Below are positions 4,940-23,773 of a stretch of 24,000 nt of DNA, piece after piece. Where the stretch lies: positions 2,076-26,075 of the forward strand of contig JAFWDV010000017.1 in assembly GCA_017515985.1 (NCBI GenBank), given 5' to 3'. A model generated the notes under the pieces. It saw only the letters and a list, made by a program, of their open reading frames with translations. It was not told the origin of the DNA and did no database searches. Numbering within the stretch: position 1 is the stretch's first letter; each line of letters starts with the position of its first letter. The position numbers were made by a program, and so were the translations under genes. Source of the stretch: Clostridia bacterium. GTDB taxonomy: Bacteria > Bacillota > Clostridia > TANB77 > CAG-508.

Positions 4940-5287
4940 TTACCTACTTAACTTATATAGAGCATATTGATTAAGTGAAACTCCCTCTTCCTGTGCTTCA
5001 ATTGATAGCTGATAGTGCAATGATTTTGGTATTCTAACAACAAATTTTCCACTGTAATTCTCACTTACTATAGGCATTGGAATGCTTATATTATGTTCGA
5101 TCTTAATTTCAATCCATTCCTTCATTGCTTCCTTTAAGCTCTTATATGCTTCTTCAAAAGAATTACCAGTGCTTTGGCATCCATCGAGCTCTAAAACCTT
5201 AGCATAGAAGTAATCTCCACTTTCATCTTTTATTGGTTGAATTATATAATTGTATGGTAAATTCATATAATAATCAACATTTTTCAT
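4940..5287 (-). CDS. hicB: HicB-family type II antitoxin
   Basis: 115 aa. N-terminal HicB fold signature (YYAKVLELDGCQSTGNSFEEAYKSLKEAMKEWIE) and a C-terminal ribbon-helix-helix-like tail (GKFVVRIPKSLHYQLSIEAQEEGVSLNQYALYKL). Confidence 0.8.
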   Translation of the reverse strand: MKNVDYYMNLPYNYIIQPIKDESGDYFYAKVLELDGCQSTGNSFEEAYKSLKEAMKEWIEIKIEHNISIPMPIVSENYSGKFVVRIPKSLHYQLSIEAQEEGVSLNQYALYKLSR

Positions 5288-13102: not shown

Positions 13103-14125
13103 TTATTTTTCCTTATATTCATTATATAGCCTTCCTTTGTAGCTAATCTTTCCCACTTTAGCTAATCTACCAACTATAAAGCTCATAGGAATTTTATATC
13201 TTTTTGATACAGATAACAAATTTTCTATATTAGTATTTTTTATGATTATATCCCATACCTCATCATTTACCATTGTTTTAATAGCAAACTCATCTGCTCT
13301 TTGCTCTATCTTGTCATCTCCATCAATAATCGTTTTGCTCTTTGCTCTGTTGTAATCGCTTTTACAATGACCAAGCTCGTGGAATAGCTCAAAGTAAAAG
13401 GAATCTTTAGCAGAATAGTTTTTAGTTATATATATAGCCGGAGTATTTAATTTGACTCTAAAACAACCTCTTACTTTTGTTCCAGATAATGCTTTTTCAC
13501 ATACAAAGATAATACCATACTTATTTAGTATTTCTTGTATTTTATCGATATTTAATCCATCATTATATGAGTATTTCTTTAGCTCATATATTAAATCATC
13601 AAATTTAGAGCTTGTATATTCTCCTACATGTTGATTCTCTGAAATCTTATCACAATGAGCAATCCACAATGCAAGTTTATTGCTATCCTCTCCGCTCTTT
13701 TTAAATAAAACATTTTCCATTAAGCAATTGTTTATTTCAAAATCTTTAACTTTTAAAAAGTCTAAAATATCTATGCTATTTTGTATAGTATTTGTTTCAT
13801 CTTTAAAGTCCACCCATTTTAGCTTCTTAAGTTCATTTAAATGATATTTTTCTTTTAACATCTTTTTAATTTTATCTTCAGATCCATATTGCTTAAGTAG
13901 CTTATTTTGTATTATATTAGCATTCTCAATAGAAACAATTAATTTTGATGAAATACCAGTCAATCTCTCGATAGTAGCAGCCATCTCCAATGTAATACTT
14001 GTTTTTCCATTAATTATTTCATTCATATGTTTTTGTGTAACACCAAGTCTACTCGCAAACTCACTTTGAGATATATTATAGTATTCAAGATAATCTTTTA
14101 AATATTCTCCAAAATGTACCATCAT
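13103..14125 (-). CDS. XRE-family HTH fused to ImmA/IrrE-type (COG2856) zinc metallopeptidase
   Basis: 340 aa. N-terminal HTH ISQSEFASRLGVTQKHMNEIINGKTSITLEMAATIERLTG. C-terminal HExxH in FYFELFHELGHCKSD followed by EQRADEFA. RBS AGGAGGGAGA. Confidence 0.85.
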   Translation of the reverse strand: MMVHFGEYLKDYLEYYNISQSEFASRLGVTQKHMNEIINGKTSITLEMAATIERLTGISSKLIVSIENANIIQNKLLKQYGSEDKIKKMLKEKYHLNELKKLKWVDFKDETNTIQNSIDILDFLKVKDFEINNCLMENVLFKKSGEDSNKLALWIAHCDKISENQHVGEYTSSKFDDLIYELKKYSYNDGLNIDKIQEILNKYGIIFVCEKALSGTKVRGCFRVKLNTPAIYITKNYSAKDSFYFELFHELGHCKSDYNRAKSKTIIDGDDKIEQRADEFAIKTMVNDEVWDIIIKNTNIENLLSVSKRYKIPMSFIVGRLAKVGKISYKGRLYNEYKEK

Positions 14126-14473: not shown

Positions 14474-15175
14474 TTAATCTGATTCTAAATTATAATTATT
14501 TATTTTTGAATTTAAATTTCTGTTTTTTGAATAAAGATTCTTGATATCAATTTCATTCAATATGTGTTGGGTACAAAATATTTCCTCTAAACTCATACAT
14601 TTTTTTATATATGTAATCTCTTTATATTTTTTATCGGTGATAGTTTTTTTTAATATTGCAAGTATATTACATTTACTGATAATTACATCTCTCATATCAG
14701 TATTTAATGCTGTATTCGGCACATAAACATCTTTTTTTACTGCCTTAACAAAACCCATGCAACAATTGATTCCTCCAATTAACTTATCAGTTTGTAGATA
14801 TACTTTAGAATTATCGTAATCACCCACTATATTTGCATTTTTATCTATTTTCATTAAATATGGTAATACTTGTAATTTTAGATTGGTAGTATGGTCTTTA
14901 CATTCTATTTTATACTTATTCAAACTGACAGATCCTCTTTTTAATAAATTATAAAAGCTAAAACTATTTAATGCATTATTGTTACTATCTATAATTATTA
15001 CTCCTGTTAGATGGGCAAAACTTGATTTTGGAAAATAGAGCTCTATCTTCTCGATATTCATTTTATCATTCCTCATGATAAGTAATACTTTCTTGTTCTT
15101 TAGGTTTTCATCATATAACTTCAAACATTTGTATATTATATTCAATATTTGCTTTTGACCAGATGTATTATTCAA
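14474..15175 (-). CDS. PBECR4-like protein (phage Barnase-EndoU-ColicinE5/D-RelE-like nuclease family 4), putative RNase toxin
   Basis: 233 aa. TTG start 6 nt after AGGAGG. The block pattern FPKSSFAHLTGV ... YLQTDKLIGGINCCMGFVK..VYVPNTALNTDMRD matches my recollection of the PBECR4 signature (F.HLTG ... TD.L.G...GF...Y.PNT.L..D.R). Needs HMM confirmation. Confidence 0.6.
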   Translation of the reverse strand: MNNTSGQKQILNIIYKCLKLYDENLKNKKVLLIMRNDKMNIEKIELYFPKSSFAHLTGVIIIDSNNNALNSFSFYNLLKRGSVSLNKYKIECKDHTTNLKLQVLPYLMKIDKNANIVGDYDNSKVYLQTDKLIGGINCCMGFVKAVKKDVYVPNTALNTDMRDVIISKCNILAILKKTITDKKYKEITYIKKCMSLEEIFCTQHILNEIDIKNLYSKNRNLNSKINNYNLESD

Positions 15176-18092: not shown

Positions 18093-18238
18093 AAAAAGCT
18101 TCGCCTCTGTATGTGAGACTAAGCTTTTTAGTGTTAGTTATTTGGTAGGCGTGGCCTTCTCCTACATCTCTCGGGTATATATACCCTATCAGTACCATCG
18201 GCGTGTGGTTGCCACGAAATTTACCACCTCAAATAACT
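18093..18238 (-). ncRNA. candidate structured small RNA (about 145 nt) with its own promoter-like boxes and terminator; class unknown
   Basis: A GC-enriched island in an AT-rich spacer. P1 is AGUUAUUUG..GUGG (18238-18224) with CUAC C AAAUAACU (18149-18136). P2 is CGUGGC/GCCACG. An internal hairpin is GGGUA-UAUA-UACCC. The terminator is gcttagtctc acataca gaggcgaagc plus TTTTT (18129-18093). G.U pairs occur only if it is read on the minus strand. Confidence 0.45.
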
Positions 18239-18390: not shown

Positions 18391-19791
18391 TTAGTCGGTA
18401 TTACTTATCCATCCTTTCAAAATCTGCACATCTTCGCTGTTGCTATTATCTATATAGCCAAATAAAGTATCCTGAATTCCTTTATATATCTTACATCTGT
18501 AGTTTTCAGGTATTCGTGAAAAAATATTATTTTCTTGAGCCAAATTAGTTACTGGACAAGTACCACAAAATGGCATATATACACATGAATGACACTTATT
18601 TAGACACTCTAAACACGATGAAACACATAGAGCTTTTGTTGTATCCGATTTAACTAAATCGTTATAATTATTCTCAAAAACATTTCCAATTTTAAAGCTA
18701 TCATCACCCATTTCTGATAACATTCTTCCTTCATCACATGTATATACATTTCCATCGTAATAGTATGCCATTTGTCCTATTGCTCCACCACATGGCGACC
18801 TAAGTTCCATATAATTTATAGGTTCATTTGCTAATATTTTCTTCAAAAAAATACAACTGTGTCTCTCAGATATATTTATTCCTTCTTTATTCTTCTCTAT
18901 AATATACGAGAGAATATTTTTATAAAACTCAATAAATTCTTCAGCAGAATAACCTATTTTTTCCCAATTCCTATCCGCCTTTCCCAGTTGAGTCAATGGT
19001 CTTACAAATAGATCTTTAAATCCTAAATTTATATATTCATCTACAATTTCTTTGTATTTATTTAAACTGTACCTAGTTGTTGTTTGTATAGCAGAAACTG
19101 GAATATTATGTTCTTGTAACTGTTTTATTTTTTTGATAGTTTCATTATATGAATCGTTATTTGCATATGGTCTATTTTTATTCTGTAGCTCCCTATTGCC
19201 ATCAATTGATGTACATACAATCAAATTGTTATCTTTAATAAATTGAATCATGTCATCCGTTAGAAGAGTTAGGTTTGATACTAGATTATATTCTATATAT
19301 TTTCCATTAGCATTTTCATTTGCGTATTTTACAATAAATTTAATAACATCAAAATTCAATAATGGCTCTCCACCTTGAAACTCAATGGTAATATACTTAG
19401 TTGGCGATTGAAGAGCAATGTCAACACATCTCTTAGCAGTATCTATATCCATATTAAAGTTTTCTTTTTGTGATAAATTTCCAGCTTGGCAATATACACA
19501 ATTAAAATTACAATTCTTTGTAACTACAATTATATGTAATGCAGTCGGAGTAAATATATAGTTTTTCTGTTTTCTTACTTCCAAATAAGATTTATTGGCA
19601 AAAATTTCAGAATTTTCGTCGTATATAAATCGCTTCTGTATAAGTTGCTCTTTAATATCATTCTCTAGCTCTTCCTTCATCATTAATTTCTTAAAATTAT
19701 CTTTACTCAAGAACTGATATTTACCTAAATCGTTTGTAATTAAATAATTATTTTCACGCTCTTCAAAATTGAAGTAATTTAACTTGTACAT
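18391..19791 (-). CDS. hxsB: His-Xaa-Ser system radical SAM/SPASM maturase (HxsB-like)
   Basis: 466 aa. CNFNCVYCQAG (Cx3Cx2C), FQGGEPLL, Cys-rich SPASM-type C-terminus CGGAIGQMAYYYDGNVYTCDEG ... CLECLNKCHSCVYMPFCGTCP. Genomic context with hxsA/C/D. Confidence 0.8.
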   Translation of the reverse strand: MYKLNYFNFEERENNYLITNDLGKYQFLSKDNFKKLMMKEELENDIKEQLIQKRFIYDENSEIFANKSYLEVRKQKNYIFTPTALHIIVVTKNCNFNCVYCQAGNLSQKENFNMDIDTAKRCVDIALQSPTKYITIEFQGGEPLLNFDVIKFIVKYANENANGKYIEYNLVSNLTLLTDDMIQFIKDNNLIVCTSIDGNRELQNKNRPYANNDSYNETIKKIKQLQEHNIPVSAIQTTTRYSLNKYKEIVDEYINLGFKDLFVRPLTQLGKADRNWEKIGYSAEEFIEFYKNILSYIIEKNKEGINISERHSCIFLKKILANEPINYMELRSPCGGAIGQMAYYYDGNVYTCDEGRMLSEMGDDSFKIGNVFENNYNDLVKSDTTKALCVSSCLECLNKCHSCVYMPFCGTCPVTNLAQENNIFSRIPENYRCKIYKGIQDTLFGYIDNSNSEDVQILKGWISNTD

Positions 19792-19800
19792 ATTAATCTC

Positions 19801-20961
19801 CTATTTTATTGGATTTACTTTTATTTCTTTCATATTAATTGTAGAAAAGAAAAATCCTCCACAATAATCTTTCGCTTTACATTCCATACATTCATCCTTA
19901 AATCTTACTTTGTAATCACTAATGCTCTTCTTAGCAATACTATATAATCTATTATCAATTTTGCACAATGGGAAATTATATAAACTAGTTTGTATTCCAG
20001 CCTTTAATAGTGTTAATACCGGATCAAATAAATAACTTTTTACCTCATCGAAATTTACCCATACATTATCTTTGTTTTTGAATGCATTTCCACTCATCTC
20101 TAAAGCCATAATATTAACAAATTTAACGTTTTTCAGCTCCTTCGCTATAAAAGTAGCTATATTGGATAAATATTTATAGTTTTGCTTTAATACAACAATT
20201 CTAATTTCTATCTCAATATTCCTTTGTAATAAATTCTTTATACCCATAACTGCTTCTTCAAAACTTCCTTCTGCTCGAGTAATACTATCATGTAATATTG
20301 CATTATCCGCATATATTGGAATTGCGATTTGAATCTTTGAAGGTGCATTTTTTACAAATTCGTTTGAAAAATTTATATCTGAAAAAATTCTCCCATTAGA
20401 CAATAACAAAAAATTTGTTTCAGGAAGACATTCTTTACATTCTCTAACAACATCAACTAAACCATACTTTAATATTCCTGGCTCTCCTCCAGTAATGCAT
20501 ATATTTTCCGTATCATCTGGAATACACCTTATTTGTTTTCTTATTTTGTTAATATCTGGCACATAATGATTATTCCTAACTTGGTCTGAATCCGGACACA
20601 TTATACAGTTTGAATTGCATTGATTGGTAACTTGAATAAAATTGTCGCCCGAATCATCTCTATATAGAACCCTAATATATGTATCATCAATCATCTCTAT
20701 AACATCATTGTTTATGAGTGTTTCCACATTTGTAATATCCGTTGCATAATTAATATTATCTAAGTCATATGCTGGTATCCAATCAATAAAAATATATCCC
20801 AAATATCCATCTTCATACAAATCTATATGCTCTTTATCTATTATTTGTATATAATTGGATTTATTATCAGTATTATCATTTTTTACTAATCTTCCAATTA
20901 TGTAATAATCTTCACTTTTAACACTTATTTTTCCTTTTAATATAAATGGTCTATTTTTCAT
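19801..20961 (-). CDS. hxsC: His-Xaa-Ser system radical SAM maturase (HxsC-like)
   Basis: About 386 aa from the ATG 7 nt after GGAGA. CNSNCIMCPD (Cx3Cx2C), ITGGEPG, short C-terminal Cys cluster CMECKAKDYCGG. About 110-aa N-terminal extension before the radical SAM core. Confidence 0.8.
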   Translation of the reverse strand: MKNRPFILKGKISVKSEDYYIIGRLVKNDNTDNKSNYIQIIDKEHIDLYEDGYLGYIFIDWIPAYDLDNINYATDITNVETLINNDVIEMIDDTYIRVLYRDDSGDNFIQVTNQCNSNCIMCPDSDQVRNNHYVPDINKIRKQIRCIPDDTENICITGGEPGILKYGLVDVVRECKECLPETNFLLLSNGRIFSDINFSNEFVKNAPSKIQIAIPIYADNAILHDSITRAEGSFEEAVMGIKNLLQRNIEIEIRIVVLKQNYKYLSNIATFIAKELKNVKFVNIMALEMSGNAFKNKDNVWVNFDEVKSYLFDPVLTLLKAGIQTSLYNFPLCKIDNRLYSIAKKSISDYKVRFKDECMECKAKDYCGGFFFSTINMKEIKVNPIK

Positions 20962-20971
20962 ATACATTCTC

Positions 20972-22009
20972 CTATAGAATTACTTTTATAACTAAATATA
21001 TTGTTGTTCCAACAAAAATAAATGGAGCAAATGGCATATGTCTCACTATTACAATCTGTTTTCTTCCTTTTTTTGTTCTACTCCATCTTTTTATACTATC
21101 AATTTCCGCTTCTGTAATTCTTGAATCTGTAGTTTCTGTTGTCTTTTCTGGTAACCCCTTTACCTTCGATCCATAGAACATTAATATAGTCTCAAAAGCA
21201 AGTATCATACCTGGTTTTAAATCATCAACATTAATTTCTTCATAGTTGTATTTTTCTGATATCTGCCTAAATAAAAATAAAATCAAAACAAGAAAAATCA
21301 TTTTTATGTTAATAGAATATATAACAAATCCATATAAAAAAGTATATATAATATTTAATAATATAGCTATTATCATTATGATTACATAGTTTCTTCGTTT
21401 TGAAACAGCTCTATATAAAAAAGTAATAAATAGCATATTACAAATCAGCAATAGAGCACCATTATATCTATTAAATTCTGGAAAAAATGTGCTTATAATA
21501 TTATTAATCAGCATAATAGAGAAATATGCCGTAAAGTATTGTATGGAAAAGTCTATCCAATTTATTCTAGATAATCTAACCAAAGAAGTTTTTGTAAATT
21601 TTTCTCTATCTTTAATCCATAATATTACGGTTTCAATAGCTACATATATAAAAGCACTACTAAATATCATAATTAATAAAAAAACAGATGGAAATATATT
21701 TTCTTTTGGCGCTTCATATATTGAGAAAGGGATAATGAACGATATAACCCAAAATAACTTTGCATCTCCTGCTGCCCATATTTTAAAATAGTAAAATAAG
21801 AAGGATAGTATCAGTGTTATGATGTTATTTATGATGTGACTAACTATAAATTCTGTTTCAATCTCCTTATAAAATACTATGTATATGCATGAACTAACAG
21901 CCAATGAAACTAGTACAATTTTATTGTATATCTTCTTGCTCTTTATATCTGTTATGGACGCATATACACATAATAAAACAACAATAATACTTTGCAAATA
22001 AACTAACAT
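20972..22009 (-). CDS. A24-family (prepilin peptidase / FlaK / TadV-like) membrane aspartic peptidase with an inserted soluble domain
   Basis: 345 aa, polytopic. First Asp in ASITDIKSKKIYN (D21), second in WAAGDAKLF (D82, GxGD-type). C-terminal MPFAPFIFVG as in prepilin peptidases. A roughly 70-aa hydrophilic insert precedes the last helix. Overlaps hxsD by 7 nt. Confidence 0.7.
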   Translation of the reverse strand: MLVYLQSIIVVLLCVYASITDIKSKKIYNKIVLVSLAVSSCIYIVFYKEIETEFIVSHIINNIITLILSFLFYYFKIWAAGDAKLFWVISFIIPFSIYEAPKENIFPSVFLLIMIFSSAFIYVAIETVILWIKDREKFTKTSLVRLSRINWIDFSIQYFTAYFSIMLINNIISTFFPEFNRYNGALLLICNMLFITFLYRAVSKRRNYVIIMIIAILLNIIYTFLYGFVIYSINIKMIFLVLILFLFRQISEKYNYEEINVDDLKPGMILAFETILMFYGSKVKGLPEKTTETTDSRITEAEIDSIKRWSRTKKGRKQIVIVRHMPFAPFIFVGTTIYLVIKVIL

Positions 22010-22425
22010 TCTTGTCCTCTATTCTTATCAAACCAATTTACAGCAATTTCATTTATATCATGATTTTTGTCATTGTTATCGTAATCAACAGTATTTTCGT
22101 CTGTATCTATACAGGTAGTATATAATGCCCTACCTAAAATTAATTCCCTTATGTTCTTTGTTTGTATCATAATGTCATATCTTAATGACTCGTTAAAAAG
22201 CTCATTATATAACTTTTTAATGTACTCATCTATATTAGTATTCTGATCCTTTAAATATATTTTCACAAGAATAATATTTTCATCAAAATGATCAAGCATA
22301 TAGTAGCAGTCTTCTATATAATTAAAAAGTGCCTTTTTTATAACTACTAAGTTATATATTCTTTCGTCTAAGTATAGCTCAATAAGATTTTCTTCTTTAA
22401 CTATATTAATTTTACTATTATTCAT
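22003..22425 (-). CDS. hxsD: His-Xaa-Ser system accessory protein (HxsD-like)
   Basis: 140 aa, soluble. The segment LYNELFNESLRYDI resembles the LLNDYxLRE motif I recall as the hallmark of the HxsD family. Position between hxsA and the maturases. Confidence 0.55.
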   Translation of the reverse strand: MNNSKINIVKEENLIELYLDERIYNLVVIKKALFNYIEDCYYMLDHFDENIILVKIYLKDQNTNIDEYIKKLYNELFNESLRYDIMIQTKNIRELILGRALYTTCIDTDENTVDYDNNDKNHDINEIAVNWFDKNRGQEC

Positions 22426-22438
22426 TTATTAATCTCCT

Positions 22439-22861
22439 CTATGGCATTGGTGTTTTAAGTGGTATTTGTGGTTCATTAAAGTCTGGAATTGTTTCTACAG
22501 GTTTCGTCGTTGTCACGCTATTATTTGTTGAGTTTCCTGAAGTAATGCCACTATTAGAGCTACTATAATGAGTTGAACTGCTGTTACCATGTGTTGATGA
22601 ACCACTACTATGGCTTTGATGGCTTCGATGACTTTGGTGACTGTAATGTCCTCCGGAACTTCCAGATGAATGTGAAGAATGAGATCTATGCGATGAATGC
22701 GATCTATGGGCTGCCAAAACTTCATCTGCAAATATTATTCCAGCTAATAATACCAATGATCCAACTGTTAATATTTTCCCCCTACTTATATTACCTTCTT
22801 CCTCATATAAGAAATCAGATATTTTTCTATTTACCTTAGATAAAAATTTTTCATTTTCCAT
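22439..22861 (-). CDS. hxsA: His-Xaa-Ser repeat precursor protein (HxsA-like)
   Basis: 140 aa. Charged N-terminus, one hydrophobic helix, then HRS-HSS-HRS-HSS-HSS GSSGG HYS-HQS-HRS-HQS-HSS ... HYS (11 HxS triplets, nt 22562-22708), then an S/T/N-rich and Pro-rich tail. RBS AGGAGG. Confidence 0.8.
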   Translation of the reverse strand: MENEKFLSKVNRKISDFLYEEEGNISRGKILTVGSLVLLAGIIFADEVLAAHRSHSSHRSHSSHSSGSSGGHYSHQSHRSHQSHSSGSSTHGNSSSTHYSSSNSGITSGNSTNNSVTTTKPVETIPDFNEPQIPLKTPMP

Positions 22862-22870
22862 AGATTCCTC

Positions 22871-23671
22871 CTACTTTGAATACTTGTTATTTGTCCAAGT
22901 TCCAGTATAACTTTTCCCATTTTTAGTATATGTACCTTTTCCATTAAACTTATTATCTGAAAAACTACCTTTATATACATCTCCATCTGAAAATGTGTAC
23001 GTACCTTCTCCATTCATACAATCATCCTTAAAACTTCCTGTGTACTTATCTCCATTTTTAAATGTATATGTTCCCGTTCCAGACATCTTATTGTTTTCGA
23101 AGCTTCCATCGTATGAATCACCTTCAGCAAATGTAATTTTACCTTTTCCGCTTATCTTATCATCTTTCCACTCACCTTCATATTTTGTACCATCTTTCCA
23201 TGTAAAAGTTCCATTTCCCTCTCTTTTATTATCATTAAACTCTCCGCTATACTCTCCATTCTCAAAAGATGGTACCGTTGGAGTAACTGGCTCTATAGAA
23301 TCTTCTGTATTAGTACTTTCTTCACTTTGAGTTTCATAAACGTCATTGTTATCCGCTATTACTCCTGAATTAGATGTTGTTGCATCATTGCTAGGTATTC
23401 CATTTATAAAAGTGAAAAATAATATCGTAAAAATAAAATATTTACCTATTTTTAAATATTTTATCCCATTCAATATTTTTCTAACTTGTGGTAATAATAT
23501 TATTCCAGCAAGCATTATTGCTATTGATGGTCCAGCAGCTTCTTTGCTATATACAAGACCACTCAAAATAAAAAAAACAGAAAATACATATGAAACAACG
23601 GTTAATACAATATTTTCCTTAGATTTATTTTCATCTACAATTCTTTTTCCTTGGTTATAATCACTTCTCAT
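22871..23671 (-). CDS. membrane-anchored MORN-repeat protein
   Basis: 266 aa. Three N-terminal hydrophobic helices, acidic linker, then about 6 tandem MORN units (YSGEFNDNKREGNGTFTWKDGTKYEGEWKDDKISGKG...YTGSFKDDCMNGEGTYTF...). Stop lies 9 nt before the hxsA start. Confidence 0.85.
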   Translation of the reverse strand: MRSDYNQGKRIVDENKSKENIVLTVVSYVFSVFFILSGLVYSKEAAGPSIAIMLAGIILLPQVRKILNGIKYLKIGKYFIFTILFFTFINGIPSNDATTSNSGVIADNNDVYETQSEESTNTEDSIEPVTPTVPSFENGEYSGEFNDNKREGNGTFTWKDGTKYEGEWKDDKISGKGKITFAEGDSYDGSFENNKMSGTGTYTFKNGDKYTGSFKDDCMNGEGTYTFSDGDVYKGSFSDNKFNGKGTYTKNGKSYTGTWTNNKYSK

Positions 23672-23712: not shown

Positions 23713-23773
23713 ATCAAAAAATGTCGAAATATGCAAATTATTTTTATCTGCATATTTCGACATTTTTCGACTT
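23713..23773. repeat. 61-nt palindromic repeat, copy 2
   Basis: atcaaaaaatgtcgaaatatgcaa-12 nt-tgcatatttcgacatttttcgactt. 19-bp stem (23717-23735 / 23749-23767). Same orientation as copy 1. Sits between the transglutaminase-like gene stop and the MORN gene. Confidence 0.9.

Follow-up and report, generated by a model that had tools for sequence, protein, structure and literature searches.

In this study, we describe a widespread six-gene Clostridial variant of the HXS system, which is confirmed to carry a dedicated A24/GxGD aspartyl membrane protease and a MORN-repeat partner. The variant was analyzed in a window of 24,000 nucleotides (the whole stretch of DNA under study) from the metagenome-assembled genome of a Clostridia bacterium (assembly GCA_017515985.1, contig JAFWDV010000017.1, positions 2,076 to 26,075 of the forward strand), in which a six-gene Clostridia-type HXS variant encodes a MORN protein, HxsA3, HxsD, the A24/GxGD protease, HxsC and HxsB. 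HXS of Escherichia coli is an anti-phage system comprising HxsA, HxsB, HxsC and HxsD that blocks DNA entry (Li et al., Nat Commun 2026, PMC13128918). E. coli HxsA does undergo N-terminal processing, and defence requires it; the step relies on the radical SAM enzymes, no protease has been assigned to it, and the mature protein acts in the periplasm (PMC13128918). By analogy, the Clostridial variant may have an anti-phage role as well. On balance, we lean towards a model in which its A24 protease processes the N-terminus of HxsA3 at the cytoplasmic face of the membrane and in which export of the HxS domain is followed by tethering and not by polymerisation.

The A24 gene is supported as an obligate, co-inherited component of the HxsA3-type Hxs subtype by observations from two sides. 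Starting from the peptidase, a protein search returned 270 relatives, nearly all 342-346 amino acids long, and a scan of one genome per species yielded 22 loci, comprising close relatives in human-gut and rumen metagenome-assembled genomes and copies of 33-36% identity in Lachnospiraceae, Desulfosporosinus, Haloimpatiens (plasmid) and Anaerovorax. HxsA, HxsD, the A24 peptidase, HxsC and HxsB are all present in 22/22 of these loci, with the A24 gene between hxsD and hxsC, and the MORN gene lies directly upstream of hxsA in 21/22. Starting from HxsA3, HxsA3 sequences used as seeds in a metagenome scan led to 24 loci, 14 of which have the stretch upstream of hxsC on the contig; the A24 gene is found between hxsD and hxsC in all 14. 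The same arrangement recurs in 4/4 loci picked from an independent HxsA3 protein search (361 relatives), so that the HxsA3 side amounts to 18/18 loci with that stretch on the contig. Co-occurrence is complete from both sides, and the linkage of the peptidase gene to Hxs clusters, which a sequence-only reading of this DNA had named as a check on its proposal of prepilin-peptidase-type processing of HxsA, thus holds for the HxsA3 subtype specifically. In addition, the proteins diverge together: pairwise distances correlate between A24 and HxsB (r 0.97), A24 and HxsC (r 0.98) and HxsB and HxsC (r 0.97; Mantel p = 0.001). Clustering of the open reading frames (ORFs) flanking the first 46 loci (flanks of up to 6 kb) shows HxsA, HxsB, HxsC, HxsD, A24 and MORN as the only conserved families, and no traffic ATPase or platform protein is conserved there. 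While hxsC occurs in 430 records of the plasmid collection (from Klebsiella, rhizobia, Leptospira and others), no relatives of the A24 peptidase were found there, nor were any found among viral contigs.

Within the window, the six genes lie on the minus strand, as do all window features given below, and follow each other in the order MORN-A-D-A24-C-B with intergenic gaps of 9, 13, -7, 4 and 9 nt. The MORN gene comes first in the operon (22871..23671, 266 amino acids; PF02493, E 5.9e-33). It is followed by hxsA3 (22439..22861, 140 amino acids; NF038309, 108.4 bits against a cutoff of 65, the profile covering residues 8-86), hxsD (22003..22425, 140 amino acids; TIGR03976, 54.2 bits against a cutoff of 50), the A24/GxGD protease gene (20972..22009, 345 amino acids; PF01478, 41.9 bits against 26.5, residues 8-117), the gene for the radical SAM maturase HxsC (19801..20967, 388 amino acids; TIGR03977, 314 bits against a cutoff of 268) and that for the radical SAM/SPASM maturase HxsB (18391..19791, 466 amino acids; TIGR03978, 512 bits against a cutoff of 370). 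All these assignments are firm. The operon is bounded upstream by a terminator-like hairpin before the MORN gene (23719..23765, with a T-run after a 20-bp stem), a second one with a weak consensus match lies downstream of hxsB (18103..18119), and no terminator-like sites were found inside 23671..18391. The A24 gene has a GAGGA ribosome-binding site upstream, read directly from the sequence, and overlaps hxsD by 7 nt, readable as ATGTTAG. The earlier claims of this overlap and of a peptidase gene that is part of the operon are confirmed. The position of the gene between hxsD and hxsC is likewise correct; the notion of a simple insertion into the canonical cluster is not, since the order is D-A24-C-B here and D-B-C-A in Proteobacteria. 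NCBI annotates the gene as 'prepilin peptidase' only. The 24-kb window holds no pilus genes and no traffic ATPase or platform protein.

Judged from its sequence, the protease is a distinct, active-looking A24 subfamily. Its catalytic residues are D21 (21947-21949, in the motif TDIKSKKIYN) and D82 (21764-21766, in AAGDAKL), both motifs being exactly as the sequence-only reading had quoted them. Across the family these motifs read T-D-x-K-x-K-I-x-N and A-G-D-x-K-L, and both Asp are invariant in 33 locus copies. The family counts 334 representatives (50% identity) at E<=1e-30; in the full-length representatives, which share 24-42% identity with the window protein, D21 is kept in 140/140, D82 in 141/141 and G81 in 141/141. 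K84 and N29 are also invariant among 140 of them, and the first G of GxGD is Ala in 111 sequences and Gly in 29. The protein has about ten transmembrane (TM) helices with an invariant PFAPF motif in the last one, and its AlphaFold2 model (predicted local distance difference test, pLDDT, 80.9) finds its best PDB fold match, with a weak score, in FlaK (3s0x). Between TM9 and TM10 lies a small alpha/beta insert domain (residues 250-325, 21035..21262; domain model pLDDT 81.7) with the nearly invariant residues Y256, S281, L286, P287, E292 and W309. No meaningful PDB fold match to this domain was found (best E 1.6). The positive-inside pattern of the loops would locate the insert domain, together with the D21/D82 pair, to the cytoplasmic face, where this domain is a candidate docking site for the HxsA3 leader or for HxsBCD. 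The protease matches no NCBIfam model (at E<=10 solely EppA, E 0.85, not significant), and neither the protease profile nor its N-terminal domain matched anything in searches of PDB sequences. Models for HxsA, HxsD or the A24 protein are absent from PADLOC 2023, which has no HXS model, and from PHROGs, except that HxsD has a weak PHROG match.

That neither the two Asp nor G-D-x-K vary across 140 divergent representatives speaks for catalysis. It thereby weighs against a quite unlikely alternative in which the A24 protein serves another substrate, such as the MORN protein or host pilins, or acts as a non-proteolytic membrane dock or exporter for the HxsBCD-HxsA3 complex. An insert domain without recognisable fold would be in line with this alternative, and the MORN protein, too, is an operon-encoded membrane protein. 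However, the N-terminal anchors of the MORN proteins differ among loci (three TM helices, one TM helix or lipoprotein-like) and share no common Gly motif, four loci have the A24 gene without a MORN gene, and no pilin genes are conserved nearby. On this lack of N-terminal conservation, the MORN protein was rejected as A24 substrate. A single anecdote also speaks against the alternative: the sole homologue with D82 changed to Asn (P0118) occurs in a locus (L049; 5100-5517, 6001-7029) where hxsA carries a frameshift at the point where its HxS repeats begin, a locus that is either decaying or an assembly error. HxsA3 itself is the sole cluster product with a conserved cytoplasmic-side motif beside a conserved N-in helix, which makes it the obvious A24 substrate, and we infer that it is the protein on which the enzyme acts.

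To compare HxsA3 N-termini, we used 132 distinct sequences from unrelated assemblies, 43 from the loci and 89 from the protein search. In the window, the N-terminus reads MENEKFLSKVNRKISDFLYEEEGNISRGKILTVGSLVLLAGIIFADE, exactly as quoted in the sequence-only reading. It would consist of three parts: a 23-residue cytoplasmic leader, a Sec-type export signal and the HxS repeat core. The leader (residues 1-23, MENEKFLSKVNRKISDFLYEEEG; 22793..22861) ends in Gly23 (22793-22795), the conserved Gly of E-E-E-G and the proposed P1 residue for the A24 enzyme. The export signal or anchor (residues 24-51, NISRGK-ILTVGSLVLLAGIIFA-DEVLA/A, the slash marking here and below a candidate cleavage site; 22709..22792) has a basic n-region that contains Gly28 (22778-22780), and a 16-residue hydrophobic run with an invariant Gly34. 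The core, which runs from residue 52 to the stop (22439..22708), combines the HxS repeats (HRSHSSHRSHSSH...) with a Ser/Thr-rich linker and a C-terminal tail that is conserved. Across the 132 sequences, hardly any gaps interrupt the alignment of leader, hydrophobic helix and first HxS repeat, and in 116 of them the first His stands 29 residues after the E-E-G Gly, so that this layout is not a matter of chance. The consensus reads F-P-K-I-x-K-x-I-x-D-F-L-Y-E-E-E-G in the leader, followed by N-I-x-R-x-K, 16-17 uncharged residues and [DE]-[VA]-x-[AG]-x-H-R-S-H, and three sites in it are conserved.

The first of these is the end of the leader. The E-E-G column holds 129 Gly and 3 Ala (40 Gly and 3 Ala among the 43 locus sequences, Gly in 89/89 from the protein search), acidic residues occupy the three positions in front of it in over 97% of the sequences, and the two following residues are Asn in 124/132 and Ile in 129/132 (above 88% in the first set and above 96% in the second). 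The column of Gly28 is poorly conserved, with 59 N, 35 G, 26 S, 7 K and 5 others, A, T, E and D being among the residues seen. Conservation of a Gly before the helix, which the sequence-only reading had proposed to look for at either position and whose lack it had named as refuting, is therefore found at E-E-G, there a side remark, and not at R-G, its main site, and if the A24 enzyme processes HxsA3, E-E-G/N-I is most likely the better candidate bond than R-G/K. With Gly23 as P1 the leader would measure 23 amino acids, and the tract that follows ends exactly 21 residues further on. This is a class III-like geometry according to the published definition, i.e., a leader of 6-26 amino acids ending in Gly, 21 mostly hydrophobic residues, cleavage on the cytoplasmic side and usually Glu5 (PMC4471445).

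The second conserved site is the helix. Its basic n-region has R at G+4 (counted from the E-E-G Gly) in 116/132 sequences and K or R at G+6 in 130/132, the uncharged hydrophobic run spans 15-17 residues in 42/43, Gly34 (G+11) is kept in 131/132 and a small residue occupies G+18. Such conservation is unusual for a plain signal peptide and suggests that the helix is recognised by a membrane protein. Directly after the hydrophobic run and just before His52 lies the third site, a signal-peptidase-I-type [VA]-x-[AG]/ motif, which the sequence-only reading had overlooked, as it had the MORN gene as a sixth conserved gene. At -1, all 43 locus sequences have A or G, and 85/89 from the protein search have a small residue; at -3, V, A, I or L is found in 43/43 and an allowed residue in 86/89. 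By sequence, a Sec-type (class I) signal is thus present in all its parts (basic n-region, short h-region, small -1 and -3 residues), the 23-residue extension at the front being atypical.

These observations bear on the fate that had been proposed for HxsA, namely a class III signal cut at R-G/K directly before the helix and a mature HxS protein that is helix-anchored or forms a pilin-like polymer. The A24 enzyme is present and obligatory, the helix is N-in with basic residues on the cytoplasmic side, and the window's own clade does have the sequence R-G-K. Nevertheless, we consider this outcome very improbable. Gly occupies that position in just 35/132 sequences, a lack of conservation on which R-G/K was rejected as the cleavage site, the hydrophobic run counts 16-17 residues versus 21 in pilins, and the small-x-small site after the helix is conserved. 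A traffic ATPase and a platform protein, by which type IV filament systems are defined (PMC4471445), are not conserved in any of the first 46 loci, and the C-terminal anchors or MORN partners described below suggest that the N-terminal helix is not the element that holds the protein. Ten diverse HxsA3 N-termini matched no pilin or Flp Pfam model even at E<=10, and membership of HxsA3 in these families was rejected on this ground. Anchoring by the N-terminal helix or polymerisation is thus argued against by the junction site, the short helix, the missing filament genes and the separate anchors. What survives of the original proposal is A24-type processing of the leader, in favour of which stand the co-inheritance, the invariant dyad and the obvious substrate; the R-G/K site finds no support, and the pilin-like fate is unlikely.

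A conserved signal-peptidase-I-type site is in line with another order of events, in which signal peptidase I releases HxsA3 and the GxGD enzyme then cuts the remaining stub of leader plus helix, in the manner of signal peptide peptidase (SPP). SPP-type GxGD proteases cut the N-in signal-sequence stubs that are left after signal peptidase. Such a step could clear the membrane, recycle leader-bound HxsBCD or release the leader peptide to the cytoplasm as a signal. The invariant Gly at G+11 together with the small residue at G+18 could destabilise the helix or give a packing face, and the leader is conserved far above ordinary prepilin leaders. Still, we hold this role to be unlikely: known A24 enzymes cut full-length precursors at the membrane surface and not intrabilayer stubs (PMC4471445), and housekeeping alone would not obviously require a strict 1:1 linkage and a conserved cytoplasmic domain.

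How the exported domain is held is suggested by the MORN protein and by the loci that lack it. The protein has three N-terminal TM helices and five MORN repeats, which are predicted to be extracellular. Its gene adjoins hxsA3 in 40/46 loci, and the MORN-hxsA3 pair shifts as one block between two layouts of the cluster, with two loci (L031 and L037) having it in duplicate. In all four MORN-less loci the A24 gene is present and HxsA3 is longer and carries a C-terminal module of its own: a TM helix with a Lys-rich tail (TM+KKK) in two of them (L018 9490-10194, L029 4927-5568), a type I dockerin in the third (L043 5992-6786; PF00404, 35 bits) and an extra domain of about 90 residues with no assigned family in the last (L034 5535-6221). 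Probably, the MORN protein belongs to the system as its sixth component and serves as a tether for the HxS protein after export. A MORN partner or an own C-terminal anchor fits an exported HxS domain in need of a tether, and hence speaks for release from the N-terminal helix instead of anchoring or polymerisation by it. This is a moderate, not a decisive, argument, as a doubly anchored HxsA3 topology is possible. The C-terminal tail of HxsA3 (22439-22480; alignment A2) is conserved across clades as L-P-D/T-F-Q-x-P-Q-I-P-P-x-T-P-x-I, or in another listing P-D-F-x-x-P-Q-I-P-x-x-T-P, and may be a docking motif.

The reading that we prefer, processing of the HxsA3 leader by the A24 enzyme followed by export and tethering, would proceed in five steps. 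First, the HxS repeats would be modified in the cytoplasm by HxsB, HxsC and HxsD, by analogy with E. coli HXS. The HxsA3 helix would then enter the membrane N-in/C-out, after which the A24 enzyme, with its Asp pair and insert domain in the cytoplasm, would remove the leader behind Gly23 (E-E-G/N-I). Next, the HxS domain would be freed on the outside at the signal-peptidase-I-type site. Finally, it would be kept at the surface by the MORN protein, or by the C-terminal TM helix or dockerin of HxsA3 where the MORN gene is missing.

Several points weigh against this reading. A separate leader protease would seem superfluous if signal peptidase I took off leader and helix in one piece, and the conserved leader could serve solely for recognition by the radical SAM enzymes. 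The junction of HxsA3, [VA]-F-A-[AG]-H-R-S-H, resembles a [FY]-x-A-[AG]-H-R-S-H junction that is also present in Klebsiella HxsA (L047 4915-5550, F-Y-I-A-G-H-R-S-H), where it lies far from the signal peptide; the motif may therefore mark the HxS core or an Hxs-specific processing site instead of one for signal peptidase I. In L044, a cousin precursor whose leader is similar is accompanied by a CPBP-type protease and not by A24. Moreover, HxsA3 fits the class III layout in part: a leader ending in Gly and a 21-residue tract are there, but positions +1 to +6 after Gly23 are polar and basic (N-I-S-R-x-K) where known A24 substrates are hydrophobic, Glu5 is absent, a signal-peptidase-I-type site follows the helix, and the empty Pfam scan for pilins counts here as well.

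In the cousin cluster of L044 (1847-11304), the precursor resembles HxsA3 in leader and helix, contains HxS repeats and has CACCYFY at its C-terminus. Its gene lies with at least five radical SAM genes, a class-V aminotransferase/cysteine-desulfurase-like gene and a CPBP/Rce1-type intramembrane protease. The latter hints that precursors with a leader plus helix generally need a membrane protease.

Compared with HXS of E. coli and Klebsiella, the Clostridial variant has orthologues of HxsB, HxsC and HxsD above the NCBIfam cutoffs and tandem HRSHSSH repeats. The effector of E. coli and Klebsiella HXS is exported, N-terminally processed and in need of anchoring to the wall or surface, as that of the Clostridial variant would be judging by the features above. 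A survey of ~10,000 mostly proteobacterial HXS systems reports four genes only, in the order D-B-C-A in 99.6% (PMC13128918), and canonical clusters have no protease, whereas the order here is (MORN-A)-D-A24-C-B with two extra conserved genes, A24 and MORN; related loci have the alternative order D-(D2)-A24-C-B-MORN-A. The precursors differ as well. Canonical HxsA starts with a plain Sec signal without leader, followed by a propeptide of ~25-35 residues, and has its own peptidoglycan-binding domain; in Klebsiella HxsA, the Sec signal (VWA/S) is followed by ~34 residues and then ...FYIAGHRSHSSH. HxsA3, in contrast, has a 23-residue acidic leader before the export signal and no peptidoglycan-binding domain, so that its order of leader, export signal and repeats is inverted relative to Klebsiella HxsA. 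A leader before the membrane helix goes together with the presence of A24, and the lack of a leader with its absence.

Among other proteases, the window enzyme is closest in kind to A24B peptidases without a methyltransferase domain (FlaK, PibD, TadV/CpaA), with which it has in common the Pfam A24 domain, G-D-x-K-L and the PF-x-PF motif of the last TM helix. Its two Asp are 61 residues apart, the same spacing as in the FlaK pair, which Hu and colleagues reportedly placed in 2011 at D18/D79. The candidate substrate HxsA3 is also similar to theirs in having a leader of at most 23 residues ending in Gly, a 21-residue tract and an N-in orientation. On the other hand, the window protease has about four extra TM helices, a conserved 75-residue cytoplasmic insert and no NCBIfam match, the first Gly of its GxGD is usually Ala, and it is not accompanied by pilin, ATPase or platform genes. 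With presenilin and SPP (family A22) it would share membrane-located GxGD aspartyl catalysis, and SPP acts on N-in stubs, matching the orientation and layout of the HxsA3 N-terminus; no sequence relationship to them emerged, no search aimed at one being made, and the Pfam assignment is A24, for which intramembrane cleavage is not established. Leader peptidases of ribosomally synthesized, post-translationally modified peptides (RiPPs), e.g., the C39 peptidase-transporters, are alike in being cluster-encoded, in facing a conserved acidic leader that likely serves recognition and in accompanying radical SAM/SPASM maturases, but here the protease is of the A24 aspartyl class and its substrate would be an exported repeat protein of 130-260 amino acids instead of a small peptide. 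A full-text literature search revealed no link between prepilin peptidases or A24 and radical SAM or RiPP systems and no mention of HxsA3 clusters.

Other genes in and around these loci are more variable. In more distant clusters, a second, shorter HxsD-like ORF (70-102 amino acids, motif E-F-x-N-Y-[LI]-I-D-L) occurs between hxsD and the A24 gene (L017 5678-5986, L028 1266-1532, L052 2369-2593 and nine other loci); none is present in the window's clade. In one clade, hxsA3 is followed downstream by genes for an unassigned 255-amino-acid protein, a beta-propeller protein, a Ser/Thr kinase, an FHA protein and a ClpB-like AAA+ protein (L050 7504-14492, L051 7546-14534, L052 7519-14480), a set that could be a neighbouring defence module. 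Metabolic genes and genes of toxin-antitoxin or mobile type make up the rest of the 24-kb window. At lower coordinates, past hxsB, lie genes for a HicB antitoxin (4940-5287), a protein with a helix-turn-helix and an IrrE/M78 peptidase (13103-14125) and a PBECR4 nuclease (14474-15175), which suggests a variable or mobile-type region.

Processing of HxsA is a key maturation step of HXS to which no protease has been assigned, and the Clostridial variant encodes its own protease and surface partner. We tentatively put forward, as quite possible though somewhat short of probable, that a Gram-positive form of HXS took over an A24 enzyme from type IV filament systems as a protease dedicated to maturing its radical-SAM-modified effector, in which the enzyme would cut a hybrid of a class-III-like and a Sec signal. 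If so, removal of the leader at the membrane would couple modification in the cytoplasm to export, and HxsA3 would be the first A24 substrate outside the pilin-like proteins that rely on filament assembly machinery. Such a role would also indicate what kind of protease the processing model of E. coli HxsA lacks. The Clostridial variant offers a testable handle on the coupling of modification, cleavage and export. The 'prepilin peptidase' labels in Firmicutes genomes would then cover more functions than their name implies, including A24 enzymes that act without a pilus or archaellum machinery. As the protease family is large, with examples traced to human gut and rumen Clostridia, the system may shape phage-host dynamics in those microbiomes.

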